The notes under the pieces: generated by a model | What the model was told of the DNA's origin: nothing | The model's database searches: none | The model's input: only the letters and a program-made list of their open reading frames with translations | IMG/VR virus record: IMGVR_UViG_3300033144_003013 | Source: an uncultured virus (IMG/VR IMGVR_UViG_3300033144_003013) | Lineage: Duplodnaviria > Heunggongvirae > Uroviricota > Caudoviricetes | Direction: 5' to 3' (one strand) | DNA: 20,000 bases | Translations under genes and position numbers: made by a program | Shown here: piece by piece, positions 1,371 to 17,139 of the stretch | Layout of the letters: each line of letters starts with the position of its first letter | How positions within the stretch are numbered: the first letter of the stretch is position 1

Positions 1371-1381
1371 TATAAAAGAAT

Positions 1382-1990
1382 ATGAGTGACTTAATGCAAA
1401 AATTAGCAATATCTAAAAAAATAATGGAAAAACATGACCAATCTCCAAGAGGTAGCAACTCAGGAGGTTTACCGATTTCAGAAAATGTTAATGCTACTTA
1501 TAATATACCAAATGAAGTAATTCAACAAAATCAACCTATAACACAACCTAAAGTTCAACAACAAGTTAACTTAGGTCAACCTGTTAACGAAAGTGCAATT
1601 ACTAATTCTAAATTACCTGATGAAATAAAAAAATTAATGTTAGAAAATCCAATAGTTCAACCACAAATGGGTGGACCTGTTTTGTCTGACGAATTAATAG
1701 AGGGAGCCTCAAGATTAATGAATAATAATACTGTACCTCAAACAGGTCCTTTACAAAACGAAGGTAACACAATCTCAACAAACTCTTCGTCACTACCAAC
1801 TAATAATGATTTAAAACAAATGATTAGAGATGTTGTTAGAGATACTGTTAGAGATGTAGTAAAAGAAGAACTACAAAGTGCAGGATTATTATCGGAATCA
1901 TCTAAAAAAACTAACGAAACATTATCACTTAGAGTAGGTAATCATATATTTGAAGGGAAAGTTTTAAAGATTAAGAAAGTAAAAAAATAA
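1382..1990 (+). CDS. Hypothetical protein (202 aa) with Q/N/P-rich low-complexity linker
   Basis: Long ORF in the gene string; SKLPDEIKKLMLENPI block, IRDVVRDTVRDVVKEEL amphipathic repeat, C-terminal LRVGNHIFEGKV beta-hairpin-like segment. Confidence 0.75.
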   Translation: MSDLMQKLAISKKIMEKHDQSPRGSNSGGLPISENVNATYNIPNEVIQQNQPITQPKVQQQVNLGQPVNESAITNSKLPDEIKKLMLENPIVQPQMGGPVLSDELIEGASRLMNNNTVPQTGPLQNEGNTISTNSSSLPTNNDLKQMIRDVVRDTVRDVVKEELQSAGLLSESSKKTNETLSLRVGNHIFEGKVLKIKKVKK

Positions 1991-2045
1991 CCATACCTTT
2001 TCTTATTAAAAATCTTTTACTATATTTTGAATAAACTTAAAATAT
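1991..2045 (+). promoter_or_regulatory. Possible promoter region for the glycan/nucleotide gene string
   Basis: Largest true intergenic gap in the window (55 bp), very AT-rich; contains TACTATATTTTG, an imperfect match to the Bacteroidota -7 element TAnnTTTG. Confidence 0.3.
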
Positions 2046-3254
2046 ATGTCAAAGATTAGAATATTAGTATTACCCTCCGATAGAACAGGAGTCGGTAAAT
2101 TTCGTTCAGTAGAACCACACATTTTCCTACAAAATCAAAATCCAAATGATTTTCATGTGGACATAGATTATGACCCAAAAATTAATGATGATAACTTTTG
2201 GAAAAGTTATGATATAGTTCATTTTCACAGAACAATAACAAAAGACTACGACTCCACTCCCGCACTTTTAGATAAACTAAAAAAATGGGGTATTGTTACG
2301 ATAGCAGATATAGACGACTATTGGTTACCAACAAAAGAGCATCCTGCTCATGCAATGGTTAATAATAATAAATTACATATAAAAATACGGGAAAATTTAA
2401 AGGCCGCACAATACGTTACCACAACTACTGAGATATTCGCTCAAGAGATAAAAAAACTTAACAAAAACGTATTTGTTTTACCAAACGCGATTAATCCTAA
2501 CGAACCACAGTTTAAAGCTAAAACTGAACCTTCAGATAAACTTAGGTTTGGGTGGTTAGGGGGTTCATCTCATTTACATGACTTAAAGATATTAGATAAT
2601 TGTTTTAGTAGATTAGGGGGGTTAAATGATAAATTTGATTTATATCTTTGTGGTTTTGATACTAGAGGTACTATAACAGAAATAGACCAAAGAACAGGAA
2701 ACCAAAAACAAAGAGACATTAAACCCGAAGAAACTGTTTGGGCAGAATATGAAAAAATATTCACAAGAAATTATAAATCATTAGATGAGGATTATAAAAA
2801 GTTTTTATTAACTTACAAACAACAACCATATGATAATGAAAAGTTCTACCATAGAGTATGGACTCAACCTGTGACCTCATACGCTAAAAATTATTCTAAA
2901 TTTGACGTATCGTTAGCACCAATTAAAAATCATATCTTTAATAGAATGAAATCACAATTAAAGGTTATTGAGGCAGGTTTTTATAAGAAAGCAATTATCG
3001 CGTCTAATATTGGCCCATACACTATTGATTTAAAACATGCCTTAAGTTATGGTGAATTTGTTGATGGTAACGCGTTATTAGTTAATGAAGGTAGAAATCA
3101 CTCGGATTGGGCTAAATACATTAAAAAACTAGTTAATAATCCATCATGGGCCGAAGAATTAGGTGAAAGGTTATACGAAACAGTAAAAGATAAATACGAT
3201 TTAAATATCGTAACAAAAACAAGAGCAGAAATTTATAAATCACTATTATCATGA
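2046..3254 (+). CDS. Glycosyltransferase, GT-B fold (GT4-like)
   Basis: G.G.FR...PH N-terminus, DIVHFHR, DIDDYW, VLPNAI, RFGWLGGSSH, DVSLAPI...FNRMKSQLKVIEAG...AIIASNIGPY donor-binding region. Confidence 0.88.
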   Translation: MSKIRILVLPSDRTGVGKFRSVEPHIFLQNQNPNDFHVDIDYDPKINDDNFWKSYDIVHFHRTITKDYDSTPALLDKLKKWGIVTIADIDDYWLPTKEHPAHAMVNNNKLHIKIRENLKAAQYVTTTTEIFAQEIKKLNKNVFVLPNAINPNEPQFKAKTEPSDKLRFGWLGGSSHLHDLKILDNCFSRLGGLNDKFDLYLCGFDTRGTITEIDQRTGNQKQRDIKPEETVWAEYEKIFTRNYKSLDEDYKKFLLTYKQQPYDNEKFYHRVWTQPVTSYAKNYSKFDVSLAPIKNHIFNRMKSQLKVIEAGFYKKAIIASNIGPYTIDLKHALSYGEFVDGNALLVNEGRNHSDWAKYIKKLVNNPSWAEELGERLYETVKDKYDLNIVTKTRAEIYKSLLS

Positions 3255-3952
3255 TAAACTTACCATTAAACAAATTACTATTTTTTGATTTAGAAACAGT
3301 TGGTATTGAGAAAGATTTACCAACACTAAAAAAGAATCGTCCAGAGTTAGCAAGATTATTTGAAAGTTACTTGGATTGGTTCATTAGAAAATACCCTGAC
3401 CAAGAAGGAAATACTCCTGAAGAAATTTTTGTAAACAAAGCTGCGTTAGTTGCTGAATTTTCAAAAATCATTGTAGCATCTTTTTCATTTATAACTCCAT
3501 CAGGTGATATTCACACACAAACAATTGCTGAGGACGATGAAAAAGACTTATTAATTAAAGTAAAAGAACTGTTAAATAAAGTAGAGAAGTTAGATTTTTA
3601 TTTGTGCGGACATAATATTAAATTTTTTGATATTCCTACATTAGGTAAAAGATTCTTAACTAACGGTATAAAACCACCTAAATTACTACCTTCTTACGAT
3701 ACTAAACCATGGGAGATTAAGGCTTTAGATACTAAGGAGATTTGGCAATTCGGAAATAATTTTGGTATTTCGTCTTTGGACTTAATGTGTATTTCCATGG
3801 GAATTGAAAGTCCAAAAACGGGAGAAGTATCAGGTAACTTAGTTCATGATACATATTGGAACGCTAATGGTTTAACACCAATATCTGAATATTGTGAAAA
3901 AGATGTTCATGTTTTGGTAGAATTAATTAAAAAAATATACAATCTTAAATAA
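3251..3952 (+). CDS. PolB-related 3'-5' exonuclease (DEDDy, DNA_pol_B_exo2-like)
   Basis: ExoI FFDLET, ExoII GHNIKFFDIP, ExoIII YCEKDV; stand-alone, no polymerase domain. Confidence 0.88.
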   Translation: MINLPLNKLLFFDLETVGIEKDLPTLKKNRPELARLFESYLDWFIRKYPDQEGNTPEEIFVNKAALVAEFSKIIVASFSFITPSGDIHTQTIAEDDEKDLLIKVKELLNKVEKLDFYLCGHNIKFFDIPTLGKRFLTNGIKPPKLLPSYDTKPWEIKALDTKEIWQFGNNFGISSLDLMCISMGIESPKTGEVSGNLVHDTYWNANGLTPISEYCEKDVHVLVELIKKIYNLK

Positions 3953-3955
3953 ATT

Positions 3956-4555
3956 ATGTTAGGTAAATTAAATAAATTAAAAGAGGAAATGTCTAAACTT
4001 AGTGACATCAAAAAAAGTTTAGAGGACGTTGACATGACTGACCCAAAAGCAATGATGGAGTCATTTGGTATTGATTATGATGAATTGGAAAAATCGTTTA
4101 CACATAATGGATTTGAGCCAACTGAAATTCAATATTCGCTTAAATCTGTAAATAAAGAACCTCAGTACCATTATGGCAGTGATTCAGGGTTTGATTTAAG
4201 AGCGAATGAAAAAGTTGTTTTAGGTCCCTTTGAAAGGTCATTAGTCCCAACAGGGTTACATATTGATGTACCGAAAAGATGTGAAGTTCAAGTGAGACCT
4301 AAAAGTGGATTAGCACTTAAGAAAGGATTAACTGTTTTAAATACACCAGGTACTGTAGATGAAGGTTATACAGGTGAAATAAAAGTTATATTAATAAATT
4401 TAACTCCCGACACTCAAACAATAGAATTTGGTGATAAGATAGCTCAAGCAGTTATTTGTCCTGTAGTTCAAGGTAGGGATGTAAAATTAAAACGAGTCAA
4501 AGAAATAAAAGAAAAAGATAGAAATGAAAATGGATTTGGTTCAACTGGAAACTAA
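3956..4555 (+). CDS. dut: Trimeric dUTP diphosphatase with ~55 aa N-terminal extension
   Basis: All five motifs: SGFDL, RPKSG, GTVDEGYTGE, KIAQAV, RNENGFGSTG. Confidence 0.95.
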   Translation: MLGKLNKLKEEMSKLSDIKKSLEDVDMTDPKAMMESFGIDYDELEKSFTHNGFEPTEIQYSLKSVNKEPQYHYGSDSGFDLRANEKVVLGPFERSLVPTGLHIDVPKRCEVQVRPKSGLALKKGLTVLNTPGTVDEGYTGEIKVILINLTPDTQTIEFGDKIAQAVICPVVQGRDVKLKRVKEIKEKDRNENGFGSTGN

Positions 4556-4934
4556 CACTAGTCCCGTACTAAGTGATGATAAAAAAAATTATTTAATAGA
4601 CATAGATGGTACAATTACAGATGATGTCCCTAATGAAGAACCTGAGAGAATGTCAACATGTTTACCATATACCGATTCGGTTAAGATAATTAATGGATGG
4701 TACGATGAAGGGCATGTGATAACTTTTTTTACCTCACGAACTGAAGAGCATAGAGAGGTAACTGAAGAATGGTTTAAAACTCATGGATTTAAGTACCATA
4801 ATTTATTAATGAATAAACCTCGTGGAGGTAATTATCATTGGATTGATAACCACATAGTCAGGGCAACCAGATATAATGGACTATGGACCCCCCTAACGAC
4901 CAAAGAGGTAAAAATTGAAGTATTTAACGACTAA
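4524..4934 (+). CDS. HAD-superfamily phosphatase, capless (C0) type
   Basis: Motif I LIDIDGT, motif II FFTSR, motif III KP, motif IV WIDN. Start (4524 or 4530) overlaps the dut 3' end. Confidence 0.85.
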   Translation: MKMDLVQLETNTSPVLSDDKKNYLIDIDGTITDDVPNEEPERMSTCLPYTDSVKIINGWYDEGHVITFFTSRTEEHREVTEEWFKTHGFKYHNLLMNKPRGGNYHWIDNHIVRATRYNGLWTPLTTKEVKIEVFND

Positions 4935-6337
4935 TGATTACGATAGGATATTGTACAAAGAAAATAGACCCTGAATTTAGAGACTATATTGAAAAATCGT
5001 CAGGGGTTCATAAAGTTGAGGTTATACCTTTTGAAAATCCTGGTACTCACTCTTTAAGTGAGGCTTATAATATAATATTAGAAAAGGCATCTAATGATAT
5101 TGTAGTGTTATGTCATGATGATTTATATTTTGAAAAAAAGAATTGGGGAAATAAACTCCTAAAACATTTTAAAAGAAACCCTGAATATGGTATTTTAGGT
5201 GTAGCGGGAACTAAGTTCTTTCCTAAATCTGCTAGATGGTGGGAAATTAATACAGAAATGTTAGGAATAGTAAATCATCAACAAGGGGACAAAAAATGGA
5301 CAAGTAAGTATAGTGAATCAAAAGGTAGTAAATTAGATGATAGTGTTATTGTTGATGGTTTATTTATAGCAATAAATAAAAACAAAATAAAACATAATTT
5401 TGATGAGAGATTCGATGGTTTCCATTTTTACGATTTAGGTTTTTGTTTTAAGAATTATATAGAAAATGTTAAAATTGGTGTATTATACGATATTAGAATT
5501 ACTCATTTATCAGTAGGTCAAACAAATCAAAAATGGGAAAGTAATAGATTAAAGTTTCTTGCTTTTTATGAAGATAAATTACCAATCTTATTACCTACTT
5601 CATTTGATAAAAAACCAATTAAAAAGGGAGAACCTTTAGTTACACTGGCTATGCCAATATATAATTACGCTAAAAGATTAAATCCTACATTACAGTCAGT
5701 GTTTAGTCAAGACTATACTAACTTTGAAATTACGATAGTTAATGACGGCTCTGATGATGAGTATTGTTTAATGAAATTAGATTCGTTAGAAGGACATGAG
5801 GGTATAAGAATAATACATAAAGAAAACACAGGAGTTTCTGACACTAGAAATGTTGCAGTTAGAGAAGGTAAAGGTGAGTATATATTACCTTTAGATGCCG
5901 ATGACATGATATTACCAGGTTATCTTAAAACGGGTGTCAACTTGATAAGAAAGAATCCTAAAATAAGTCCTGTTTATTGTGATACTATTCATGTAGGGGA
6001 AATGCAAGGATTGGAGGAAAGACCTGAATGGTCACCTGAAAGACTGTTATCAGGTCCATTTATTGTTAATAGTTCAATGTATTCTCGTGAGGCTTATGAA
6101 ACTATTGAAGGGTATAATACCGAAATGAAAGGATGGGTCGATTATGATTTGTGGGTTCAAATGATGGACGCAGGATTTATAGGTAAAAGAATTCCTAAGG
6201 GTCTATTTATATATTTCCATCACGAAAGTGAAGGGAAGGGTTCAGTTTCAACCTCAGCTAGACAAAATATGAAACAATTACATAAAACAGTTTTAGATAG
6301 ACATAAACTTAGGAATAAAAATAGGAATAATGAGTAA
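4934..6337 (+). CDS. Two-domain GT2-type glycosyltransferase (two GT-A domains)
   Basis: N-domain: SLSEAYN, VLCHDD, GILGVAG, VDGLF, FDERFDGFHFYD, ITHLS.G. C-domain: LVTLAMPIYN, VNDGSDD, ENTGVS..RN, ILPLDADD, VDYDLW. Confidence 0.9.
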   Translation: MITIGYCTKKIDPEFRDYIEKSSGVHKVEVIPFENPGTHSLSEAYNIILEKASNDIVVLCHDDLYFEKKNWGNKLLKHFKRNPEYGILGVAGTKFFPKSARWWEINTEMLGIVNHQQGDKKWTSKYSESKGSKLDDSVIVDGLFIAINKNKIKHNFDERFDGFHFYDLGFCFKNYIENVKIGVLYDIRITHLSVGQTNQKWESNRLKFLAFYEDKLPILLPTSFDKKPIKKGEPLVTLAMPIYNYAKRLNPTLQSVFSQDYTNFEITIVNDGSDDEYCLMKLDSLEGHEGIRIIHKENTGVSDTRNVAVREGKGEYILPLDADDMILPGYLKTGVNLIRKNPKISPVYCDTIHVGEMQGLEERPEWSPERLLSGPFIVNSSMYSREAYETIEGYNTEMKGWVDYDLWVQMMDAGFIGKRIPKGLFIYFHHESEGKGSVSTSARQNMKQLHKTVLDRHKLRNKNRNNE

Positions 6338-6476
6338 TATTGACCAACAAAATAATGGCAATCCTCACACACAAGAAACTAGAAATTCATTTAATCAAAA
6401 AGTGGCTAGATTAGCAATACTTGGTCAAAGTAAAAAGGTAAAGTGGAGCGATAAGAGAAGGTACAGGAATATATAA
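6330..6476 (+). CDS. Small basic hypothetical protein (48 aa), below ORF-track cutoff
   Basis: ATG at 6330 overlaps the upstream GT end; TAA at 6474-6476 lies 4 nt before the next ATG. Translation MSNIDQQNNGNPHTQETRNSFNQKVARLAILGQSKKVKWSDKRRYRNI fills the gap exactly. Confidence 0.65.
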   Translation: MSNIDQQNNGNPHTQETRNSFNQKVARLAILGQSKKVKWSDKRRYRNI

Positions 6477-6480
6477 AATA

Positions 6481-7083
6481 ATGAAAGAAAAAAAGATAAT
6501 AATAGTTGGGTCTTCAGATATAATGTTAGAAAATAATCTTGGAAGTGAGATTGATAATTTTGATATTGTAGTAAGGTTTAATAGGGCTCCTGTATTTAAT
6601 TTTGAAAACTATGTTGGGTCTAAAACTGATGTTAGATTTGTTAATTCTCACGCAGTAAAAAATACTCCAAAACAAAATGAAGACCTAAAATTTTTACCTT
6701 CAGTAAAAAATCAAATAATATGTAGTGATTTTAATATTAATGATAACGATTTTTATAGAGTTTTTGATAAAAGTTGTACCTACAAACAAATTAATAGATT
6801 TAGTAATTTCAAAAAATTTAAAAATAATATTTTAGATAAATTAGATATTAATTTAAATATGAAAGCCCCTGAACCTTCAGTAGGTTTAAATGCCATATGT
6901 TATTATATAAATGAAGGTTATATACCTACAATTTATGGATTTCATTTACATGATGAAAATCGAAATGTCTCTCCACATTATTGGAAGAAAAAACTTTCTG
7001 TTGGGGGTTGTCATGACTTTTCCTATGAAAGAAAATTAATAAAAGAATTAATAAATTTAAATTATTTAAAAGTATTAAAATGA
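6481..7083 (+). CDS. GT29 sialyltransferase-like glycosyltransferase
   Basis: All four sialylmotifs in order: L (IIVGSS...LGSEIDNFDIVVRFNRAP...FENYVGSKT), S (PSVGL.AI...IYGF), III (HYW), VS (HDFSYE). No transmembrane anchor. Confidence 0.9.
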   Translation: MKEKKIIIVGSSDIMLENNLGSEIDNFDIVVRFNRAPVFNFENYVGSKTDVRFVNSHAVKNTPKQNEDLKFLPSVKNQIICSDFNINDNDFYRVFDKSCTYKQINRFSNFKKFKNNILDKLDINLNMKAPEPSVGLNAICYYINEGYIPTIYGFHLHDENRNVSPHYWKKKLSVGGCHDFSYERKLIKELINLNYLKVLK

Positions 7084-7373
7084 CAATATTTGTAGATATA
7101 GACGAAACTATTTGTTACTATGAAAATGAGAGAGATTATAATTTAGCTCTTCCATTAGTGGACAATATAAAAAAAATTAATAAATTATATGATGAAGGTC
7201 ATCATATTAAGTATTGGACCGCTAGAGGTACAGTAATTAAGATAGATTGGTTTGATGTGACCAAAAAACAACTTGATGAGTGGGGGTGTAAGTACCACGA
7301 ATTAAGTGTTGGTGAAAAACCAGCTTATGATTTATTAATATGTGATAAAACAAAAAGAATAGAAGAAATATGA
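7080..7373 (+). CDS. Minimal HAD phosphatase (EcbF/BcbF capsule-phosphatase-like)
   Basis: IFVDIDETI, LYDEGH.I.YWTARG, KP.YDL.ICDK; 97 aa; ATGA overlaps on both sides. Confidence 0.85.
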   Translation: MTIFVDIDETICYYENERDYNLALPLVDNIKKINKLYDEGHHIKYWTARGTVIKIDWFDVTKKQLDEWGCKYHELSVGEKPAYDLLICDKTKRIEEI

Positions 7374-8278
7374 TAAAATTTAATAGCCCTGTATACCCTA
7401 TACCTCCATCATTTGATGAAGAGGAAAAATTAGAACTAATGTCAACAATTAGTTACTTAAATTATATAAAAACAAACGGAGGTAAAATCGTAATGACGAC
7501 TGCTGGAACTTCTCAGTATAACTTACTTAAGATTGAAGAAGTTAGGTCATTAAACTTGTGTGTGATTAATAACTTTGACGGTGAGAAAATATTAGGTCTT
7601 CCTCCTCTTAGTCTTAAACACATTAAAGAAGAAATAGAATTAATGAATACATTATGTGCTTCAGAAGACCCTAAGAAAATATCTTTACTAATATTATTTC
7701 CTGAGAGGTATTATGATGATGAACAGATTGTTGAGTATTTTGAAGAAATATGTAGAGTAAGTAAATTCAATATTTTAGTACATGGAAATCTATTAAGAAA
7801 AGGTATGGGAGGAACATATGAATACAGTAAACCACTATTAGAAAAACTGAGTAATATTGAAGGATTTATAGGTATGAAGGAAGAGGCATCAAACCTTATG
7901 CATTCAACTACTAATTTACCAAAAGATAATTTTGAGGTTATAGTTGCGGGTGGTAGTATGAAAAGATTTTGGGGATTATGTCCTCATGGGGCAACCACAT
8001 ACCTGACAGGTGTAGGTTCGTTTTTCCCTAAATTAGAAGAATCATTTTTTTCAAATTACAAGAATCATAACATAAATGAATGTTTATCAATTATCAATAA
8101 AATTGAAACTCCCCTATTTGAAACTTTTATGTCATCAGGGTGGCACCTATCTATGAGAACCGCATTAAAAGAGTTGGGTTTCATTAATAGTGATAGAAAA
8201 CCATTTAAACAACCTACTAAAGAAACTAAAGAAAAAATTATAAACACACTTAATAAAATTAAAAAATATGAAGAATAA
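7370..8278 (+). CDS. DapA/NanA-family class I aldolase, divergent active site
   Basis: ~300 aa; P.F...LEL N-terminus, AGTSQ at the GTTGE position, ERYY at the PYY position, Schiff-base Lys in FIGMKEE. Confidence 0.8.
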   Translation: MIKFNSPVYPIPPSFDEEEKLELMSTISYLNYIKTNGGKIVMTTAGTSQYNLLKIEEVRSLNLCVINNFDGEKILGLPPLSLKHIKEEIELMNTLCASEDPKKISLLILFPERYYDDEQIVEYFEEICRVSKFNILVHGNLLRKGMGGTYEYSKPLLEKLSNIEGFIGMKEEASNLMHSTTNLPKDNFEVIVAGGSMKRFWGLCPHGATTYLTGVGSFFPKLEESFFSNYKNHNINECLSIINKIETPLFETFMSSGWHLSMRTALKELGFINSDRKPFKQPTKETKEKIINTLNKIKKYEE

Positions 8279-9020
8279 TAAAACATATATTATAGGACCA
8301 TGTAGTCTTGAGACCTATGAGTTATCACATGAGGTCCTTTCCAAAGTGTATCCAGTTGTAAAAGATAAAGATTTTTATTTTAAAGGTTCATTCGATAAAG
8401 CCAATAGAAGTTCAATCACAGGTAAAAGAGGTCCTGGTTTAGAAGAAGGGATTGAAATATTTAAACAATTAAAAAAGGACTTTCCTAATGTCAGAGTTAC
8501 AACTGATGTTCATGAAGTCGCACAAGTAGAAAAACTATCAGATGTCGTAGATGTAATTCAAATACCGGCCTTTCTATGTAGACAAACAGATTTGTTAGTA
8601 GAATGTGCTAGATTCTTTGATATTGTAAACATAAAAAAGGGTCAATGGATGAATCCTCAAAATATGGTTAAAGGTATTGATAAGATAAAAGAAACTAACC
8701 CTAAGGCTCAAGCTTGGATGACTGAAAGAGGAAGTGCGTTTGGTTACTCTCAATTTATTGTAGACTTTTCAAGTGTGGATTATCTTAAAGAACATTTCGA
8801 TAAAGTTATTTTTGATGTTACTCACTCAGCTCAATTACCTAAACCAAATGGTAGAATGGGAGGAAATCCTACGTTAGCCGCGAGATACTTCAAAACAGTA
8901 GATATATTTAACTACGATGGGGTTTTTGCTGAAGCACATCCTAACCCACCATTATCATATTCGGATGCGGATTCAGTATTACCAATAAATGAAATGGTGG
9001 ATTTATTAAAACAAGAATAA
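8268..9020 (+). CDS. kdsA: 3-deoxy-D-manno-octulosonate 8-phosphate synthase, metal-dependent type
   Basis: GPC, FKGSFDKANRSS (KANRS, diagnostic versus DAH7PS KPR[ST]), TDVHE, QIPAFLCRQTDLL, NIKKGQ, ERG..FGY, FDVTHS, EAHPNP...SD. Confidence 0.93.
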   Translation: MKNNKTYIIGPCSLETYELSHEVLSKVYPVVKDKDFYFKGSFDKANRSSITGKRGPGLEEGIEIFKQLKKDFPNVRVTTDVHEVAQVEKLSDVVDVIQIPAFLCRQTDLLVECARFFDIVNIKKGQWMNPQNMVKGIDKIKETNPKAQAWMTERGSAFGYSQFIVDFSSVDYLKEHFDKVIFDVTHSAQLPKPNGRMGGNPTLAARYFKTVDIFNYDGVFAEAHPNPPLSYSDADSVLPINEMVDLLKQE

Positions 9021-9023
9021 ACT

Positions 9024-9698
9024 ATGTTTAAAGTTTTAACAGAAAAAACAGACATTAAAAAAATGTCAAATACCCTAAATGAGGAAGGAGTCTTTATTGT
9101 GGAAAATTTTGTAACGGGTGATGATTTGCAAAAATTACACGATGAGGTACTTAACCTATGTAAGAAAAATGGGGGTAACTATGAATTTGGCAAAAATTAT
9201 CGTGGACCATCTTTAAAACAATTCAAAGATAATAGTTACGTTAAAAAAGTCTTTAATAGTAAATGGTTAAAACAATTAGATAAAGAATATCGTAAAACGG
9301 ATAAAGGATATTCGAGCGCAATTTACGCGACGTGGGATTATAAAAATGATAAAGGATTGGCAAGAAACGGATGGTTACATTTCGATAGAGAAAATTGCCT
9401 AAAATATTTTATATATTTAACTGATATAGATAAAACTAATGGAGCGTTAAATTTATCCCCGAAATCAAGAAAAAAGGGGGAAGAACTTAGAAAGTCTGCA
9501 TGGAATAAAAATAAAAATTACGGGTCTGTTCTTAATAGAATAGAACTAGATTATTCTCAATTATTAGAAGAATATCCCCACTATCCTGTTGAATATCCTG
9601 CAGGTACATTAATAGTTTTTGATACTGATACATTTCACAAGGGAGGGTTATGTGAAACAGATAAAAGTAGATTAATAGTAAGAGCACATTGTAAGTAA
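9024..9698 (+). CDS. Fe(II)/2-oxoglutarate dioxygenase, PhyH-like
   Basis: L.EEGVFIVENF, HFD (HxD), YFIYLTDID..NGA....P.S, AGTLIVFDTDTFHKGG (distal His), SR (2OG-binding Arg). Confidence 0.85.
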   Translation: MFKVLTEKTDIKKMSNTLNEEGVFIVENFVTGDDLQKLHDEVLNLCKKNGGNYEFGKNYRGPSLKQFKDNSYVKKVFNSKWLKQLDKEYRKTDKGYSSAIYATWDYKNDKGLARNGWLHFDRENCLKYFIYLTDIDKTNGALNLSPKSRKKGEELRKSAWNKNKNYGSVLNRIELDYSQLLEEYPHYPVEYPAGTLIVFDTDTFHKGGLCETDKSRLIVRAHCK

Positions 9699-9699
9699 T

Positions 9700-10386
9700 A
9701 TGAAAAAGATTGTAATTTTTGGTGAATCCCATACTCGTAGTTTCGCATATATTGAAAATTTAATACCTGTGTTTATGGATTCAGGTAAGACAATTAACTT
9801 AGATAATAAAAACATTAAAAATGTAATAAATAAGATAAAAACTCTAAGAGATAAACTTCCTGAAGATGATTATATCTTTTTTACATTTTTAGGCGAACCT
9901 AATGTAAGATATCAGTTAGATAACGATTGGTATATACATAAAAATAAAAATTTTAAAGGTAATGATAAGATAAACAAAGATTATTTGGACCAGTGTATTA
10001 AAAACTATAAAAAACTATTTGATGATTTAGGTATAATTTCATATGTGATTACTCCGACTACCGCATATCAACCATCAATAAAGTCATTACAATACTTTAA
10101 TCAAAAACTTAAAGAAATTTTTAATGATAAAGTAATTGATATTTTTTCCAATACTTTAACCGATGGAAAAATTAAGGACTCGTTTAAGGACCCTAATTTT
10201 AAAGATGACCCAGTTCACTTAAATAGTAGAATTGTGGATGAATTCTTTAATCAATTAATTTTAAAAAAAGTAATCCATAAAAAAGACGAGAGTAAATTTA
10301 AAAAGAATAAAGAGTTAGTATACGCAAATCACATTAAGAAGATATTCAATAAAAATAAATTTGGCACATTTAATATAAAAAAATAA
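9700..10386 (+). CDS. SGNH/GDSL-like protein (putative O-acetyl esterase or transferase)
   Basis: Block I IVIFGESH (GDSH variant), block III-like FLGEPN, block V DPVH (DxxH). Confidence 0.6.
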   Translation: MKKIVIFGESHTRSFAYIENLIPVFMDSGKTINLDNKNIKNVINKIKTLRDKLPEDDYIFFTFLGEPNVRYQLDNDWYIHKNKNFKGNDKINKDYLDQCIKNYKKLFDDLGIISYVITPTTAYQPSIKSLQYFNQKLKEIFNDKVIDIFSNTLTDGKIKDSFKDPNFKDDPVHLNSRIVDEFFNQLILKKVIHKKDESKFKKNKELVYANHIKKIFNKNKFGTFNIKK

Positions 10387-10387
10387 A

Positions 10388-10978
10388 ATGGGAAACGATT
10401 GGGATAATAAAACTTATGATTGGAAAAAATTACAAGTTTTTTTTAATGATTATTTATTTATACACATTCATAAAACTGCCGGTTCTTCGGTAAAGAATTT
10501 CTTCTATTCAGGTCATGGAAATCGGTCGTCTCATATGACAGTTGAATCAATAATTAATGAGATTGGTATAGAAAAATTTAATGAGTTTAAATCATTTTGC
10601 GTCGTAAGAAATCCTTACGATTTAGTGGTTTCACATTATTCTTATAGAGTTGAAACTAATAGGATTAAAAAAATGAGTTTTAATGACTTTATATTAGAGA
10701 GTCATTTTTCACAGATACCACCTCAGGTAGAATACATTAAATATAATGATAAAATATATTGTAATGATATATTGAGATATGAGAATTTAGTAGAGGATAT
10801 TGATAAATTTATTAAAAAAAATAATATAGATTTAAATATTTCTAATTTTCCCCATACTAGAAAAAGTACAAGAAAAGATTATAAGGAATATTTTACAAAT
10901 AAAGAAGTCTTAGACGTTGTAAATGAATACTATAAGGAAGACTTCGAAACTTTTAACTATAAAAAAATAGAATTATGA
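10388..10978 (+). CDS. Sulfotransferase (Sulfotransfer_2 / carbohydrate sulfotransferase-like)
   Basis: 5'-PSB FIHIHKTAGSSV, 3'-PB VRNPYDLVVSHY, RYENL, C-terminal YYKEDFETFNY. Confidence 0.9.
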   Translation: MGNDWDNKTYDWKKLQVFFNDYLFIHIHKTAGSSVKNFFYSGHGNRSSHMTVESIINEIGIEKFNEFKSFCVVRNPYDLVVSHYSYRVETNRIKKMSFNDFILESHFSQIPPQVEYIKYNDKIYCNDILRYENLVEDIDKFIKKNNIDLNISNFPHTRKSTRKDYKEYFTNKEVLDVVNEYYKEDFETFNYKKIEL

Positions 10979-11661
10979 AAAGATTATGTATAATTCCTGC
11001 CCGTGGAGGAAGTAAAAGATTACCAGGTAAAAATATTAAACCTTTAAACGGTAAACCGTTGGTTTTTTATACTATAGATGCAGTATTAAAGTCCGATATG
11101 TTCGATAAAGTAATATTTACATCTGATGATGATACAATACTTGATACTGTATCTAATAATTACTCATCAACAGTTTTAGAAGTGATTAAAAGACCTTTAG
11201 AATTGGCTACTGACACATCTAAAGTCATCGATACTGTTATGTATTTTTTAGACGATAACTATGACCAAACATGGTTAACTTTACCAACATCACCTATGAA
11301 AATATCTGAAGATTTTGTTAAGTCTTCAGAACTACTAAAAGAAGATGACGATTCGGTACTTTCGTACACAGAAATGGAGTTTCCCCCAACATTAGGTTTG
11401 GTGGTAAAGAACAATAATATATTAGAAGATTATGACCAAACAAATCCTTGGCAAAATGGTAATAGTCGTAGTCAAGACCATCCAACGGTATATAGACCCA
11501 ACGGTGCAATATATGGTTCTTGGACAAAAAAATTAAAAGAAAATAAAAATTATTATATAGGACATACTAAAGGATATTTTATGCCAAGAAAAAGGTCTGT
11601 TGATATTGATACTCAGTTTGAATTTGATTTAGCTGAATTTATGTTAAAAAACAATTATTAA
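10975..11661 (+). CDS. neuA: Acylneuraminate (CMP-ulosonate) cytidylyltransferase, NeuA/PseF type
   Basis: IIPARGGSKRLPGKNI..LNGKPL, RP.ELATD, PTSP, RSQD...YRPNGAIY, SVDIDT..EF.LAE. Confidence 0.9.
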   Translation: MKRLCIIPARGGSKRLPGKNIKPLNGKPLVFYTIDAVLKSDMFDKVIFTSDDDTILDTVSNNYSSTVLEVIKRPLELATDTSKVIDTVMYFLDDNYDQTWLTLPTSPMKISEDFVKSSELLKEDDDSVLSYTEMEFPPTLGLVVKNNNILEDYDQTNPWQNGNSRSQDHPTVYRPNGAIYGSWTKKLKENKNYYIGHTKGYFMPRKRSVDIDTQFEFDLAEFMLKNNY

Positions 11662-11663
11662 TT

Positions 11664-12488
11664 ATGAAAGATAAAGTAGGAATTATAGGTAATGGTTTTG
11701 TCGGCGAATCTCAAGTATTCGCATTTTCTCCAACAAATGAGATAAGGGTTTACGATATTGACCCATTAAAGTCAACTCATAGTTTATCAGAAACACATGA
11801 GTGTGATTTTATATTTGTTTGTGTACCAACACCAATGAAATCTGATGGTAGACAAGACTTATCCTTTATTGAAAATGTATTTGAGGAATCCAAAGAAGGT
11901 CCAATTTATATTATTAAATCAACCGTATTACCGGGAACAACAGAGAAGTTAATTGAAAAATACCCTCATCTAAATATTATTTTTTCACCTGAGTTTTTAA
12001 CTGAAAGAACCGCCAAATTAGATATGTTAACTCAGGCAAGAATTATTCTTGGAGGTGAAAAAAAATTAACTGAAAAAGTAGAATCACTATTTTCAAATCG
12101 TTTTATGAATAGACACTTTATCCATACAGATTCAAAAACCGCAGAATTTATAAAATATATGAATAATACATTTTTTGCAACTAAAGTATCTCTAATGAAT
12201 GAATACTATCGTCTATCTAAACTTGTTGGTATTAATTGGGAAGACGCTATGTATGGTTTTTCATCAGACGGAAGGGTGGGTGATTCTCATTTACATGTAC
12301 CAGGTCCTGATGGTAAATTAGGATTTGGAGGAACCTGTTTCCCTAAAGATATAAATGCGTTAACATCAATGGCAAAAGACGTAGGGGTTAACATGAATGT
12401 TTTAGAAGCCGCTTGGAAAACCAATTTAGAGGTTAGACCTGAACAAGATTGGAATAAACTAAAGGGTCGGGCGATTAGTGAAAATTAA
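11664..12488 (+). CDS. ugd: UDP-glucose/GDP-mannose 6-dehydrogenase family protein, short form
   Basis: GIIGNGFVG, CVPTP, IKSTVLPGTT, SPEFL, AEFIKYMNNTFFATKVS, GFGGTCFPKD (catalytic Cys); ends at 274 aa. Confidence 0.85.
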   Translation: MKDKVGIIGNGFVGESQVFAFSPTNEIRVYDIDPLKSTHSLSETHECDFIFVCVPTPMKSDGRQDLSFIENVFEESKEGPIYIIKSTVLPGTTEKLIEKYPHLNIIFSPEFLTERTAKLDMLTQARIILGGEKKLTEKVESLFSNRFMNRHFIHTDSKTAEFIKYMNNTFFATKVSLMNEYYRLSKLVGINWEDAMYGFSSDGRVGDSHLHVPGPDGKLGFGGTCFPKDINALTSMAKDVGVNMNVLEAAWKTNLEVRPEQDWNKLKGRAISEN

Positions 12489-12492
12489 ATAA

Positions 12493-13575
12493 ATGAAAAA
12501 AATAGTAGTTTTAGGTGGTGGTGGTTTTATTGGAGGTCACCTCGCCAAAAGGTTAAAAGAAGAAGATAATGTAGTAATAATTTGTGATATAAAAAATCAT
12601 GAATTTTTTAATCATTCTGATATCTGCGACAAGTTCATCAAAGGGGATTTAAGAGACCCCAAAGTAGTTTCAGAAGTTATAGATGATAATGTCGATGAGG
12701 TTTATCAGTTAGCTGCCGATATGGGTGGTGCAGGTTATATTTTTACAGGTGAAAATGATGCGAATGTCATGCATAACTCCGCCTTGATTAATTTAAATGT
12801 GGTTCATGAGTGTACAAAAAAGAGAGTAAAAAAAGTTTTTTATTCTTCTTCAGCTTGTATGTATCCAGAATATAACCAACTAGATTCAAGTAACCCTAAT
12901 TGTGAAGAATCTTCCGCATACCCCGCGAATCCTGATTCAGAATATGGATGGGAAAAATTATTTTCAGAAAGATTATTCTTATCATTTAATCGTAACTACG
13001 GTTTAGATGTTAGAATCGCTAGATTCCATAATATATTTGGACCTATGGGTACTTGGACAGGGGGAAAAGAAAAGGCACCAGCGGCTATGTGTAGAAAAGT
13101 ATCAGAATCCGATGAGACTGTTGAGGTATGGGGAGACGGTAACCAAACCCGTTCATTCCTTTATATTGATGAGTGTGTTGAAGCAATATTAAGATTGATG
13201 AAATCAGATTTTATTGGACCTGTTAATATTGGTTCAGAAGAAATGGTTACAATTAATCAATTGGCTCAAATGGCTATTGATATATCAAATAAAGATGTTA
13301 AAATTAGTAATATAGATGGACAAGATTTCGTAGATAAATATGGGTTTCAATGTCCTTTAGGTGTGAGGGGTAGAAACTCCGATAATAAACTTTATAAAGA
13401 AAAAATAGGTTGGGAAGTGTCTCAACCACTTATAGAAGGTATGAAAAAAACTTATGAATGGATAGATAAACAAGTAAAAGAAAAAACTTATATCTATGAA
13501 AGTCCCGATAATGGTAAAACCATATATCGTAGAGAGTTCGGTAAAGAACCAAATTCTCGTGAACGAATCAAATAA
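12493..13575 (+). CDS. GDP-mannose 3,5-epimerase-like NAD-dependent epimerase (extended SDR)
   Basis: GGGGFIG, QLAADMGG.GYI, YSSSACMYP, YGWEK, RFHNIFGP.GTW.GGKEKAPAAMCRK, WGDG.QTRSF, GVRGRNSDN. Confidence 0.9.
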   Translation: MKKIVVLGGGGFIGGHLAKRLKEEDNVVIICDIKNHEFFNHSDICDKFIKGDLRDPKVVSEVIDDNVDEVYQLAADMGGAGYIFTGENDANVMHNSALINLNVVHECTKKRVKKVFYSSSACMYPEYNQLDSSNPNCEESSAYPANPDSEYGWEKLFSERLFLSFNRNYGLDVRIARFHNIFGPMGTWTGGKEKAPAAMCRKVSESDETVEVWGDGNQTRSFLYIDECVEAILRLMKSDFIGPVNIGSEEMVTINQLAQMAIDISNKDVKISNIDGQDFVDKYGFQCPLGVRGRNSDNKLYKEKIGWEVSQPLIEGMKKTYEWIDKQVKEKTYIYESPDNGKTIYRREFGKEPNSRERIK

Positions 13576-13593
13576 AAAAAGAATACTGAAATA

Positions 13594-14298
13594 ATGGCAA
13601 GAAAAGGCGAAATAAGTAGAAAAATCCCAAGAAAAGATTTAATAAATAAGATTATAAGTAGAAACCCTAAACAAAAATTTTTATCAGAAAGTCAAAAGGA
13701 ATATTATAACATACTAAAAGATAGTGAAATTACCATATGTACAGGACCCGCAGGTGTTGGTAAATCATATATTGCGATGAAAGCGGCGGTAGAACTTTTA
13801 ATGGACCATAATAATTCCTATGAAAAGATTATAATTGTTAGACCGGCAGTTGAAGCTGAAGAAAAATTAGGAGCGTTACCAGGTAATTTAGAAGAAAAAT
13901 TAGACCCTTACATTTTTCCATCATATTACTTATTAAACAAAATAATAGGTAAAGAGGCTAGAGAAAAGTTAAAGGAAAACGATATAATCGAGGTATTTGC
14001 ATTAGCATACATGAGAGGAATGAATATTGATAATTCAATACTAATTTTTGAAGAAGCTCAAAATTCTACTCCTTCACAAATGAAATTATTACTAACAAGA
14101 ATAGGTTTTAACAGTAAATTTTTCATATCTGGAGATATTGAACAGACAGATAGATATAAAGATAAAACACAATCAGGTTTATATGATGCTACGATAAGAT
14201 TTAAGAATTTAGAAAAAGTGGGAACATATAACTTTAAATCAGATGATATTATAAGAAATCCTCTGATTACCAAATTATTAGATAGGTACGATACATGA
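13594..14298 (+). CDS. phoH: PhoH-like ATPase
   Basis: Walker A GPAGVGKS, RPAVE, LGALPG, YMRG, EEAQN, LLTRIG, GDIEQTD, IIRNPLI. Confidence 0.95.
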   Translation: MARKGEISRKIPRKDLINKIISRNPKQKFLSESQKEYYNILKDSEITICTGPAGVGKSYIAMKAAVELLMDHNNSYEKIIIVRPAVEAEEKLGALPGNLEEKLDPYIFPSYYLLNKIIGKEAREKLKENDIIEVFALAYMRGMNIDNSILIFEEAQNSTPSQMKLLLTRIGFNSKFFISGDIEQTDRYKDKTQSGLYDATIRFKNLEKVGTYNFKSDDIIRNPLITKLLDRYDT

Positions 14299-15262: not shown

Positions 15263-16327
15263 ATGGATACAGAATTATTAAAAAAAGTAGAACAATCTGT
15301 TCAAAACTTAGAAGATAAATCAGTTAGAATTTATTTTTTAACACAAGATACTAAAGGGAATGCTAAAGCATCGGTTAGACAAACATATGAAACCGCATTA
15401 ACCTTAAAGAATAATGGTTTCAATCCCATAATCATTCATGAAACAAAAGAGTACACTGGTGTTTCAGAATGGTTAGGTGAAGAGTACATGACTTTACCTC
15501 ATGAGTCTATTGATGGTGACCAATTAAAAATATCACCTGAGGATTTTATTGTGGTACCTGAAATATACGGTCACGTTCTAGAACAAGTTGCGAATTTACC
15601 ATGTGGTAAAATTATATCTTGTCAGGCATATGACCATATGTTAGAAACATTACAACCTGGTACTACATGGTCTCAATATGGGTTTTTAAAGGCAATTACT
15701 ACAAATGAAAAACAAACTGAATATGTTAAAGGAATAATTAAAAACGTTTCATTTGATATAATCGAACCATTTATACCTGAAGTATTTTCACCAAAAACTG
15801 TACCCTCAAAACCAATCATATCAATTCACACTCGTGACCAAAGAGACACGATGAAGATAATCAAAACTTTTTATTTAAAGTTTCCACAATTTAGATGGAT
15901 AACATTTAGAGATATGAGAGGATTAACTCAAACTCAATTTGCTGAATATCTAAAGGATTCTTTTGTTTCGGTATGGGTAGACGATACCTCATCTTTCGGT
16001 ACATTCCCTATGGAGTCTATGGCTAGTCGTACACCTGTCATAGGTAAAGTTCCTAACATGAAACCTGAATGGATGAATGAGACTAATGGTATTTGGACGT
16101 ATGAGTTAAATCAAATGGTAGATATTATAGCTGAATTTATTCAAAATTGGTTAGAGGACAACATTAATGATGAATTATATCAATCAGGTATCAATACCGC
16201 AGCTAAGTTCCAAAATAGAAAAGAATTTGATAGTGTTGTTGTATCAACATTTGAAAATTACTTAAATTCAAGAAAAGAGGTGTTTCAATCTCAATTAGAT
16301 AAACTTAAAGTAGAGGAAGAAAATTAA
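15263..16327 (+). CDS. Glycosyltransferase, GT-B fold (GT4-like, divergent)
   Basis: DFIVVPE, C-terminal SSFGTFPMESMASRTPVIG (variant of E.FG...EAMA.G.PVI). Confidence 0.75.
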   Translation: MDTELLKKVEQSVQNLEDKSVRIYFLTQDTKGNAKASVRQTYETALTLKNNGFNPIIIHETKEYTGVSEWLGEEYMTLPHESIDGDQLKISPEDFIVVPEIYGHVLEQVANLPCGKIISCQAYDHMLETLQPGTTWSQYGFLKAITTNEKQTEYVKGIIKNVSFDIIEPFIPEVFSPKTVPSKPIISIHTRDQRDTMKIIKTFYLKFPQFRWITFRDMRGLTQTQFAEYLKDSFVSVWVDDTSSFGTFPMESMASRTPVIGKVPNMKPEWMNETNGIWTYELNQMVDIIAEFIQNWLEDNINDELYQSGINTAAKFQNRKEFDSVVVSTFENYLNSRKEVFQSQLDKLKVEEEN

Positions 16328-16332
16328 AAGTT

Positions 16333-17139
16333 ATGGAAAATAAATTAAACGTATCAGTAATATTACCAATTAATTCATCAAAAATTAAAGATTTTGAAAA
16401 GTATTTTGATAGTTGTATTACATCAATAATTAAACAAACTACTACTATTGATGAATTAGTATTAGTACATAGTGACGAAGAGTCATTAACATCGTTTGTT
16501 CAAAATTACGATTACAGCGGTTTGACGGTTAACCTTGTTGAAAATAAAGGAGATGTTGATTTCGCAAGTCAAGTAAATTTAGGAGTTGAAAATGCAAAGA
16601 ATGATTGGATTTCGTTATTAGAAGTCGATGATGAATACGCATCAATATGGTTTAAGAACGTAAAAAGATATATGGAAGCATATCCAAACGTATCAGGATT
16701 CTTACCTCTAGTTATTGATGTTGATGAAAAGGGTGTTTTTGCTGGGTTCACAAACGAAGCCACCTTCGCGGCGAACATGAATAGTGAAATTGGTTATCTA
16801 ACAAACGAAGTTTTATTAAATTATCAAAATTTTCAAACAAGTGGAGTAGTTTTGAAAAAATCCACTTTTCAAGATTTCGGAGGTCTTAAAAAATCTATGA
16901 AATTAACTTTCGTTTATGAATTTTTATTAAGACTTACTTATAACTCTGTAGAGATTATGACTATACCAAGAATTGGTTATAAGCATATGAATATGAGAGA
17001 AGGTTCTATTTTTTGGAACTACAAGTTTGGTGAAAACAAAATAACTGAGGATGAAGTGGCGTTTTGGATTGATTCGGCGAAAAAAGAACATTTTTTTATT
17101 GAAGATAGGGACATAAACTATCAAGCAATAGATGTTTAA
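16333..17139 (+). CDS. Glycosyltransferase family 2-like (GT-A)
   Basis: VSVILPI, Q.....ELVLV, VNLGV..AK.DWISLLEVDD, FGGL, YEFLLR, Y.H. Confidence 0.8.
   Translation: MENKLNVSVILPINSSKIKDFEKYFDSCITSIIKQTTTIDELVLVHSDEESLTSFVQNYDYSGLTVNLVENKGDVDFASQVNLGVENAKNDWISLLEVDDEYASIWFKNVKRYMEAYPNVSGFLPLVIDVDEKGVFAGFTNEATFAANMNSEIGYLTNEVLLNYQNFQTSGVVLKKSTFQDFGGLKKSMKLTFVYEFLLRLTYNSVEIMTIPRIGYKHMNMREGSIFWNYKFGENKITEDEVAFWIDSAKKEHFFIEDRDINYQAIDV

Follow-up and report, generated by a model that had tools for sequence, protein, structure and literature searches.

Eight plus-strand genes at positions 6481–11661 of a 20,000-nucleotide stretch from an uncultured virus of the Caudoviricetes (IMG/VR record IMGVR_UViG_3300033144_003013; "the window" denotes this whole stretch) form a cassette that probably makes, activates, and attaches a sugar resembling 3-deoxy-D-manno-octulosonate (Kdo) and the sialic acids, and identical to neither. 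Two kinds of sugar activated with cytidine monophosphate (CMP) are known: Kdo and members of the sialic-acid family. On the sequence evidence, the conserved unit of the cassette is DAPL, a Schiff-base enzyme of the DHDPS/NAL fold, together with a phosphoenolpyruvate (PEP)-dependent synthase and a NeuA-type transferase with a characteristic leucine (Leu-transferase); a GT29 glycosyltransferase and a phosphatase are its usual companions. The original prediction, which had treated the eight genes as one module, overlooked the defining pair of DAPL and Leu-transferase. We see about an even chance that this is a mobile ulosonate cassette of a jumbo myophage in which DAPL edits the C3–C4 region, yielding a non-Kdo, non-Neu5Ac (N-acetylneuraminic acid) CMP-sugar that is transferred by GT29. 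The genes are as follows.

6481..7083, + strand: soluble GT29, predicted CMP-ulosonate transferase (PF00777, E 4.5e-23); usual partner, fast-evolving
7080..7373, + strand: minimal HAD phosphatase, 97 aa (phrog_1238, E 1.2e-22; motifs DIDET/WTARG/KPAYD)
7370..8278, + strand: DAPL, DHDPS/NAL-fold Schiff-base enzyme (PF00701, E 8.7e-8); core, defining gene
8268..9020, + strand: KdsA-family synthase, metal-dependent (PF00793, E 1.4e-41); core here, NeuB in sister loci
9024..9698, + strand: iron/2-oxoglutarate-dependent (Fe/2OG) dioxygenase, module-specific family (PF05721, E 7e-14); frequent optional tailoring gene
9700..10386, + strand: SGNH-fold acyl-hydrolase/transferase-like protein (GESH/LGEPN/DPVH motifs); variable slot
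10388..10978, + strand: sulfotransferase (PF03567, E 1.2e-7; phrog_3347); variable slot
10975..11661, + strand: predicted NeuA-type CMP-ulosonate synthetase with Leu103 (PF02348, E 2.6e-23); core gene

All eight open reading frames (ORFs) are intact and are separated by −4, −4, −11, +3, +1, +1, and −4 nt, which confirms the contiguous, overlapping or near-abutting run described earlier; the families were assigned by profile, motif, or fold.

A DAPL–synthase–transferase unit recurs in viral loci

A scan with 50 close DAPL sequences yielded 38 viral loci, the best 80 of 210 metagenome matches, and one GTDB locus; the patterns of the GTDB scan were longer than those used on viruses, and genomes G426 and G594 escaped it, so 38 against 1 is no measure of enrichment. 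Wherever a DAPL ORF was followed by at least 1 kb of downstream sequence, KdsA accompanied it (35/35 viral and 64/64 metagenome loci, both sets being redundant; 3 viral and 16 metagenome loci, too short or cut, were left out). The association is therefore not due to chance, and the predicted co-occurrence in related genomes holds. Across 48 non-redundant KdsA-type loci, GT29 is found 43 times and the small HAD 33 times. These 48 are what remains below 90% DAPL identity from 70 loci with whole DAPL, KdsA, and transferase genes. Across them, pairwise divergences correlate with rho 0.70–0.77 within the DAPL/KdsA/transferase trio, compared with 0.35–0.43 when GT29 is one of the pair.

The transferase carries the NeuA-type motifs ARxGSK, RPxxLA, PTSP, RxQD, NGAIY, and DIDT, and its best PDB match is 1eyr (E 8.7e-28). 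It lacks the QGD motif of KdsB, models of which cover residues 1–68 only, and scores under the PseF cut-off (135 < 206). Leu103, present in 58/58 sequences, occupies the position of Gln104 in NeuA and Gln98 in KdsB, residues that are equated in PMC2901514; the same paper reports that Q104L drops the kcat/Km of Neisseria meningitidis NeuA for Neu5Ac from 4.1 to 2.9e-4, or ~14,000-fold.

The dioxygenase, SGNH, and sulfotransferase genes occupy an exchangeable slot. Between KdsA and the transferase we found a dioxygenase in 16 of the 48 loci, a methyltransferase dependent on S-adenosylmethionine (SAM) in 16, an SGNH protein in 12, a GSCFA protein in 8, sulfotransferases of two families in 3 and 2, and nothing in 16. 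Counted over whole loci, the dioxygenase family occurs in 31/48; SGNH occurs in 11/48, the window's sulfotransferase family in 3/48, and an unrelated sulfotransferase family in 4/48. The SGNH allele is swapped in close relatives: a phage whose DAPL is 99% identical carries another one, and diverged alleles are recorded for L143 and for a contig of run X10. The eight genes, then, are not the one fixed pathway that had been proposed. Only the dioxygenase (His119-x-Asp121, His205, and Arg216 conserved) is a tailoring gene tied to the cassette sugar, because its family is confined largely to DAPL loci: it is absent from 80 other viral kdsA loci, and DAPL is present in 20 of the 22 viral loci found with it. 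The sulfotransferase is weakly linked to that sugar. The SGNH-like protein has no Pfam match; its structure model aligns with a GDSL family model at TM 0.60.

Those 80 other loci, our contrast set, head a ranking of viral kdsA matches (at least 562 in all) by similarity to a KdsB-partnered KdsA. They contained neither DAPL nor Leu-transferase, with KdsB in 7, a SIS protein in 7, and GT29 in 14. Conversely, SIS/KdsD was found in none of 120 module loci and in none of five module-bearing viral records, three of them at least 90% complete, and KdsB in one of the 120, as an extra gene (L193). With no isomerase encoded nearby or in these records, the aldose phosphate is presumably supplied by the host; the route is thus not "complete", as first claimed, since it would need host arabinose 5-phosphate. 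DAPL was also absent from the whole records of LR756500.1 (GT29, KdsA, and KdsB), LR756508.1 (four GT29s, NeuB, and small HAD), and cyanophage S-SCSM2R (KdsA and KdsB) (0/5 records searched), while the same alignment detects G001, G426, and G594.

The window KdsA scores above the cut-off for NF003543 (262 bits against 242) and below that for TIGR01362 (249 against 314). It retains Cys12, KANRS44, His82, His186, Glu222, and Asp233, including the four Cys/His/Glu/Asp metal ligands, and the KDO8P synthase motifs KANR[ST] (not KPRS) and PAFL, with the PEP-binding Lys/Arg. In a tree of 56 sequences (24 of the 48 module KdsAs, 25 other viral, and 7 cellular) the module enzymes form a single clade (support 100/100, stem 1.49) next to viral KdsB-partnered enzymes, at a place where, as the program warns, long branches meet.

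The retention of all checked catalytic residues of KdsA would fit a cassette for ordinary CMP-Kdo (Kdn in loci with NeuB), with the NeuA-like enzyme in place of KdsB, as proposed for CroV, and DAPL as a linked aldolase of salvage or catabolism. A plant GT29 is reported to use CMP-Kdo (PMC13213038), CroV is described as combining KdsA with a NeuA-like transferase (PMC9614988), and viral KdsA+KdsB+GT29 loci exist as the sister group. We nevertheless consider this reading quite unlikely. DAPL lacks the tyrosine needed by aldolases (see below), is near-obligate with the Leu-transferase, and does not occur in plain Kdo loci. The dioxygenase family keeps to loci with DAPL, and one transferase lineage is unlikely to serve both Kdo and Kdn unchanged.

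Several other viral loci encountered in these scans deserve mention. In L085 (5950–7359), L107 (5950–7344), L122 (5950–7389), and similar loci, a phage KdsA with an unassigned C-terminal domain of ~200 aa is followed by a cupin and GT29; this is another viral ulosonate cassette, in two partial records of which no cytidylyltransferase was found. A large group of viral contigs of GC ~0.4 (L079, L083, L087, L091, L095, L099, L115, L119, L127, L131, L135, and L139) carries a lone kdsA in a conserved non-Kdo neighbourhood, with no KdsB, KdsD, or GT29 nearby. The huge phage LR756508.1 (L052, 7198–12366 and 12553–20812) has, besides its four GT29 genes, NeuB, and small HAD, some ten related genes of 200–285 aa in tandem; a divergent cytidylyltransferase (L349) lies at a distance of 17 kb. 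L067 (1938–4292) and L070 (5662–8016) are CroV-like Kdo sets in viral contigs, each with small HAD, KdsA, a KdsD-like protein, and a NeuA-like transferase that has His at the Gln104 position. RNA-library contigs X17 and X19 (one sample; a 90–97% identical relative) cover HAD-DAPL-KdsA-dioxygenase, the transferase, and UDP-glucose dehydrogenase; contigs cannot show transcription, and these were not counted as support.

DAPL departs from class I aldolases at catalytic positions

The predicted structure of DAPL (pLDDT 94.8) is a (beta/alpha)8 barrel of the DHDPS/NAL type (TM ~0.8). Of the features of class I aldolases it has the fold and the Schiff-base lysine (Lys170, strand 6; 111/112 sequences). 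It has neither the catalytic Tyr133/137, replaced by His138 in 109/112, nor the Thr/Ser44 relay, with Gly at the Thr44 position in 89/112; Glu or Asp stands two residues after the lysine (position 172) in 105/112. Glu171-Glu172 and Trp258-His259 are further features of the window enzyme. His138, Lys170, Glu171, Trp258, and His259 are retained in 58/58 DAPLs of KdsA- and NeuB-type loci, whereas the remaining pocket residues follow the partner: AGTSQ, KEE, and AGGS with KdsA, and mostly [YF]N[ST]R, KED, and SGxG with NeuB. Aldolases of the DHDPS/NAL family are reported to need the tyrosine (PMC9795676), a mark that DAPL lacks.

Two members of the family offer a parallel. DAPL shares the fold and the Schiff-base lysine with L-2-keto-3-deoxyarabinonate (L-KDA) dehydratase of Azospirillum (Z 28.4) and with KdgD (Z 29.2), at 13–16% identity. 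KdgD is also its best NCBIfam match, at 23.6 bits against a cut-off of 374, and has the Gly at the Thr44 position in common with it. In L-KDA dehydratase the tyrosine is replaced by Gln143, and the enzyme uses Glu173, two residues past Lys171, a glutamate reportedly not conserved in other family members (PMC9795676). DAPL matches this pattern of a non-Tyr residue at 133 and Glu at Lys+2, by sequence spacing and not by residue-level superposition, although with His instead of Gln. Both enzymes are catabolic in known cases, whereas the context of DAPL is biosynthetic.

The family performs condensations (DHDPS) besides eliminations. DAPL might accordingly add at C3/C4, forming a second carbon–carbon bond or using a nitrogen nucleophile, to give a branched, longer, or aminated ulosonate, or it might form a channelling complex with the synthase. 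Arg or Lys at the DHDPS Arg138 position in 48 of 50 KdsA-type DAPLs, and the invariant Trp258-His259, which marks an extra sub-site, would suit such a role; the module has no conserved gene to supply a donor, and DAPL has lost the Tyr and Thr that relay protons in DHDPS. We give these possibilities a low probability.

DAPL is fused behind a GT2 domain in L249 (5471–7231) and in P0147 and P0251, the latter two not being KdsA-DAPL fusions; G272 proved to be an ordinary DapA-like gene. No tblastn match to DAPL was found in INPHARED, and none in PLSDB at 1e-8.

KdsA and NeuB precede the same transferase lineage

A reverse scan with the transferase gave 396 matches, of which the best 80 were taken and 79 classified, one having no ORF. 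Leu stood at window position 103 in 49, and DAPL was present in 42 of these, against 1 of the 30 others, where the sequence turned out to be a Leu transferase missed by the pattern. The seven Leu loci without an adjacent DAPL comprise three with DAPL further off in the record, two that are cut short, and two low-scoring pseudaminic/legionaminic acid (Pse/Leg)-like ones. Several Leu+DAPL loci carry NeuB and no KdsA; when 137 loci were pooled into 61 non-redundant ones, 50 had KdsA, 2 KdsA plus NeuB, 8 NeuB, and 1 neither.

Trees of DAPL and of the transferase were built from 37 rows (28 of 52 KdsA-type, 8 NeuB, and 1 unlabelled). The DAPL tree needs a single change of synthase label (support 100/99), whereas the transferase tree needs five, at least four of them forced by well-supported branches, and a single clade of NeuB-partnered transferases is rejected (p-AU 0.0001). 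L245 (KdsA) and L246 (NeuB) have transferases that are 86% identical and DAPLs that are 20% identical. Because the DAPL tree splits by synthase and the transferase tree does not, synthase and DAPL appear to swap as a unit that feeds one kind of transferase. As judged from these trees, the synthase is interchangeable, KdsA or NeuB preceding the same transferase lineage, which is new here. The claim that the cassette matches neither the Kdo nor the Neu pathways accordingly survives as regards a product unlike standard Kdo or Neu5Ac, and not as regards separation from NeuB, which sister loci use for KdsA.

Gene order in 62 loci was DAPL–KdsA–transferase in 51, NeuB–DAPL–transferase in 7, NeuB–transferase–DAPL in 2, DAPL–transferase–KdsA in 1, and DAPL–transferase in 1. 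In the three loci with the transferase between synthase and DAPL, the DAPL type still fits the synthase, so adjacency alone is not enough to explain the match; in the remaining loci linkage surely contributes to it. The NeuBs of DAPL loci are not one clade, and among them nests that of LR756508.1, whose 484 kb genome has no DAPL; this NeuB clade therefore needs no upstream DAPL.

These data also bear on whether DAPL acts before the synthase, as a lyase or aldolase that makes the synthase's aldehyde in KdsD's place and so leads to the ulosonate of an unusual aldose. DAPL directly precedes KdsA in most loci, the position that KdsD holds in L063 and L064; its type tracks the synthase; KdgD and L-KDA dehydratase release aldehydes; and SIS/KdsD is missing from all 120 module loci and from the five module-bearing records, whereas 7/80 loci of the contrast set have it. 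Yet KdsD is equally missing from the other 73 of those 80 ordinary loci; KANR[ST] and the phosphatase suggest an aldose phosphate already supplied by hosts; the NeuB of LR756508.1 works in a genome without DAPL; and one aldehyde passed through KdsA and NeuB would give C4 epimers, both of which the 86%-identical transferases would have to accept. We regard action upstream as unlikely.

Two loci add further variants. L246 has an APH/choline-kinase-like gene (3736–4584) where the syntenic L244 and L245 have KdsA, and a 617-aa NeuB upstream. In L018 (12257–16154), one phage carries a KdsA-type module plus a second set of a short NeuA-like gene, NeuB, and three GT29s.

A candidate pathway to a CMP-activated ulosonate

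From the observed families, folds, residues, and co-inheritance we infer the chemistry, that is, the product, the reaction of DAPL, and the acceptor. KdsA would condense PEP with an aldose phosphate from the host (most probably arabinose 5-phosphate), and the small HAD would take off the phosphate. The HAD has neither a Pfam nor an NCBIfam match; non-homologous KdsC/YrbI-family enzymes take its place in cellular loci L202, L199, and L347, which argues that it is an ulosonate-phosphate phosphatase, and it also adjoins NeuB and GT29 in LR756508.1. DAPL would bind the 2-keto acid as a Lys170 Schiff base, without cleavage, the aldolase Tyr being lost, and would eliminate the C4 hydroxyl with Glu172 as base, like L-KDA dehydratase. 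The unsaturated intermediate may be released, cyclised, or re-hydrated, to give a deoxy, anhydro, or epimeric ulosonate. That DAPL is such a C4-hydroxyl eliminase seems to us plausible, if somewhat short of an even chance. The phosphatase and DAPL steps could come in either order. The Leu103 transferase would then form the CMP-sugar, and GT29, in which sialylmotifs L, S, III (HYW166), and VS (H178-x4-E183) are all found, would move the sugar onto a glycan built in the cytoplasm. GT29 enzymes catalyse CMP-ulosonate transfer with inversion. The earlier logic of synthase, phosphatase, CMP activation, and GT29 is supported. Slot genes (dioxygenase and methyl-, acyl-, and sulfotransferases) may diversify the sugar or its glycan.

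NeuB with its own DAPL type would be a second route to the same transferase. The products of KdsA and NeuB have opposite C4 configurations, as the structures of Kdo and Kdn/Neu5Ac show; our literature search found no paper on KdsA/NeuB facial selectivity. DAPL may erase this difference: a Schiff-base eliminase acts at exactly C3–C4 and would be the simplest explanation for two DAPL types feeding one transferase.

Several points weigh against elimination by DAPL. Fold scores single out no dehydratase, all DHDPS/NAL members scoring Z 25–30 at 9–17% identity, and DAPL shows no evident equivalent of Glu200, which is the second base in L-KDA dehydratase, the loop that probably corresponds being Gly-Gly-Ser. 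The module has no conserved reductase or aminotransferase that could complete a 5-keto product. Leu or Ile also stands at the Gln104 position in eight DAPL-free transferases of NeuB-type or unassigned loci, and a deoxy sugar therefore cannot be diagnosed from Leu. Should the substrates be arabinose 5-phosphate for KdsA and mannose 6-phosphate for NeuB, their products would differ in length (C8 and C9) and at C6, and C4 loss alone would not equalise them; the aldose of the module KdsA may, however, be another one, given its long stem and changed loops. Finally, the trees contain only eight NeuB loci. Among other products considered, hydroxylation to Ko by a KdoO-like enzyme was set aside, as the dioxygenase matches PhyH only, and Dha (heptulosarate) had no specific support.

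Hydrophobic segments are absent from every cassette protein and from the four flanking glycosyltransferases, which argues for an acceptor assembled in the cytoplasm. Virion proteins are our first candidate, with roughly equal chances of being right or wrong, since the core is shared by giant viruses, which are known for glycosylation of their own particles (PMC9614988). Host surface glycans come next, possible though less probable, given that cellular copies sit in Wzx loci; DNA is last and improbable.

The window probably derives from a jumbo myophage

The gene run goes beyond the limits first drawn, both downstream into a UDP-glucose dehydrogenase (+2 nt) and then an NDP-sugar epimerase (+4 nt), and upstream, where a 48-codon ORF fills the gap between a GT2 gene and GT29:

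4934..6337, + strand: GT2 glycosyltransferase (PF00535, PF13712), syntenic in L001 and L017; phage backbone gene and possible builder of the acceptor glycan
6330..6476, + strand: 48-aa ORF between GT2 and GT29, no assigned function
11664..13575, + strand: UDP-glucose dehydrogenase-like and NDP-sugar epimerase genes (PF00984/PF03721, PF01370)

The dehydrogenase and epimerase genes lie outside the conserved core and are placed differently between loci. The 48-aa ORF is 81–90% identical in L148–L150 and had no match in the remaining stored loci (344 searched); it is missing from the near-identical L143, in which the GT29 start region differs too. No promoter- or terminator-like site was found at 6200–6520, and repeats in 4500–13700 were seemingly chance AT-rich matches.

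Profile searches of the window ORFs recognised no structural gene in the 20,000 nt, and true cellular versions of the cassette exist; both facts could suggest a cellular lipopolysaccharide or capsule locus, or a piece of host DNA binned as viral. This reading is largely refuted and very improbable. Positions 139–14049 are collinear with IMG/VR locus L001, at 70–85% nucleotide identity outside the variable slot, and the L001 contig encodes tail sheath, tail tube, baseplate, PolB, DnaB, and UvsX (15 proteins picked, 12 with a PHROG match). Moreover, no Wzx, Wzy, ABC exporter, or lipid A gene is among the window ORFs, and the third-codon-position GC content (GC3) of the cassette equals that of its flanks. 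The phage origin claimed earlier is thus upheld by synteny. The L001 contig has 72,761 bases and is rated 21% complete, giving ~350 kb by arithmetic; contractile tail genes and a genome >200 kb, the marks of a jumbo myophage, were found on this syntenic relative and not on the window itself, which we accordingly take to come from a jumbo myophage of roughly 350 kb. Close relatives come from seawater, river, and salt-marsh metagenomes. A Bacteroidota host is a lead only, suggested by the cellular loci and by likeness to the core of the moraphages.

Four backbone glycosyltransferases and a sigma-like gene (2046–3254, 4934–6337, 15263–16327, 16333–17139, and 17139–17930) are conserved in L001/L008-type phages and are candidates for assembling the acceptor glycan. 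The GT4 label of 15263–16327 is a sequence reading, without a Pfam match, and the sigma-like gene had no tblastn match in INPHARED. A second small HAD of the same PHROG family lies at 4524–4934, in the phage backbone next to a dUTPase.

The core also occurs in giant-virus bins and rare bacteria

The core is, by its sequence distribution, not phage-specific: giant-virus bins have it too, as do a few Wzx loci of bacteria, mostly Bacteroidota. NeuB versions were found in giant-virus bins, of which G411 carries a capsid gene of nucleocytoplasmic large DNA viruses (bins can be contaminated); this check covered 2 of 5 chosen records. The cellular locus L202 adjoins dxr; its phosphatase scores above cut-off for KdsC/YrbI, and it also holds KdsA, a member of the same methyltransferase family, and a Wzx-like gene. 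L347, on a 538 kb contig of G426, has a KdsC-type HAD, NeuB, Leu-transferase, DAPL, an SGNH-like protein, dioxygenase, and Wzx-like genes, according to our own HMMs and sequence reading. Cellular versions are rare, with 1 true match (the centre genome) in 401 genomes of its phylum and 3 in 401 of its order. In L012 (G001), a Haliscomenobacter metagenome-assembled genome, the cassette copy is frameshifted (a long-read assembly is likely) and adjoins a transposase fragment; a separate housekeeping kdsA is present in the genome.

Relation to known systems

Judged by its genes, the cassette functions like a CMP-ulosonate pathway, yet it lacks the marks of the Kdo pathway (KdsB, KdsD), of NeuA (Gln104), and of class I aldolases (Tyr). 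With the CMP-Kdo pathway (KdsD-KdsA-KdsC-KdsB, and GT29 MGP2/RCKT1 in plants) it shares a metal-dependent KdsA, a HAD phosphatase, CMP activation, and, in plants, transfer by GT29 (PMC13213038); it differs in having no KdsD or KdsB, a NeuA-type Leu103 transferase, the extra DAPL, and a long-stemmed KdsA clade. It resembles the NeuB/NeuA pathways (Neu5Ac, Kdn, Leg, Pse) in NeuA-type motifs, GT29 sialylmotifs, and a HAD, and through sister loci that use NeuB, one with a HAD of the KdsC/Kdn-9-P-phosphatase type. However, the window has no NeuB, Gln104 is replaced by Leu, and no NeuC or PseB/C-type genes were recognised in the core; we know of no counterpart of DAPL in those pathways.

Virus-encoded KdsA with a CMP-transferase in a glycogene cluster is also reported for CroV, Fadolivirus, and S-SCSM2R. 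CroV crov265–267 encode KdsA, an isomerase/phosphatase, and a NeuA-like transferase, a predicted Kdo pathway that, like that of Fadolivirus, which also has an isomerase, lacks experimental validation (PMC9614988). For S-SCSM2R, kdsA/kdsB are reported (PMC12801897), and DAPL is absent. Neither a DapA-fold enzyme nor a GT29 is named in the available portions of these papers; no DAPL search was made on CroV itself. Bacterial GT29s are described as soluble and of unpredicted function, and "virus" and "phage" are absent from the available text of that paper (PMC5811610). Phage glycosylation of virions or host surfaces (mycobacteriophages; moraphage core glycosyltransferases) likewise involves soluble phage enzymes, and with two GT2, two GT4-like, and the sigma-like gene the window resembles the moraphage core (PMC12619734) in gene content only; the main text of that paper mentions no ulosonate genes ("kdo" 0, "sialyl" 0). 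Our literature search, which covered subscription journals thinly and excluded supplements (e.g., the gene tables of PMC12619734 and PMC12801897), found no DapA-fold enzyme in an ulosonate pathway and no description of the cassette. No characterised phage equivalent was thus found, as had been stated; earlier reports do, however, describe a cyanophage with kdsA+kdsB and, for CroV, the pairing of KdsA and a NeuA-like transferase.

Implications

The cassette suggests that a step still to be assigned lies between synthesis and activation, and its product is probably a natural sugar not yet described. More tentatively, and more likely wrong than right, it may represent a third CMP-ulosonate branch, distinct from Kdo and from the nonulosonates. 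Here two unrelated synthases would supply a Schiff-base enzyme that channels what they make into a single undescribed sugar; jumbo phages and giant viruses would share this branch with rare Bacteroidota, with GT29 capping virions and the cap varied through the swappable tailoring slot. Nature's exchange of KdsA for NeuB before a near-identical transferase serves as an experiment and restricts the possible chemistry, and the five small soluble enzymes are open to direct expression and assay; they are potentially useful for making non-natural sialosides. If true, our reading would provide the first function for prokaryote-type GT29s and would place in biosynthesis a DHDPS/NAL subfamily whose present annotation as DapA is mistaken. 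Work on the cassette would also test whether large phages glycosylate their particles like giant viruses.

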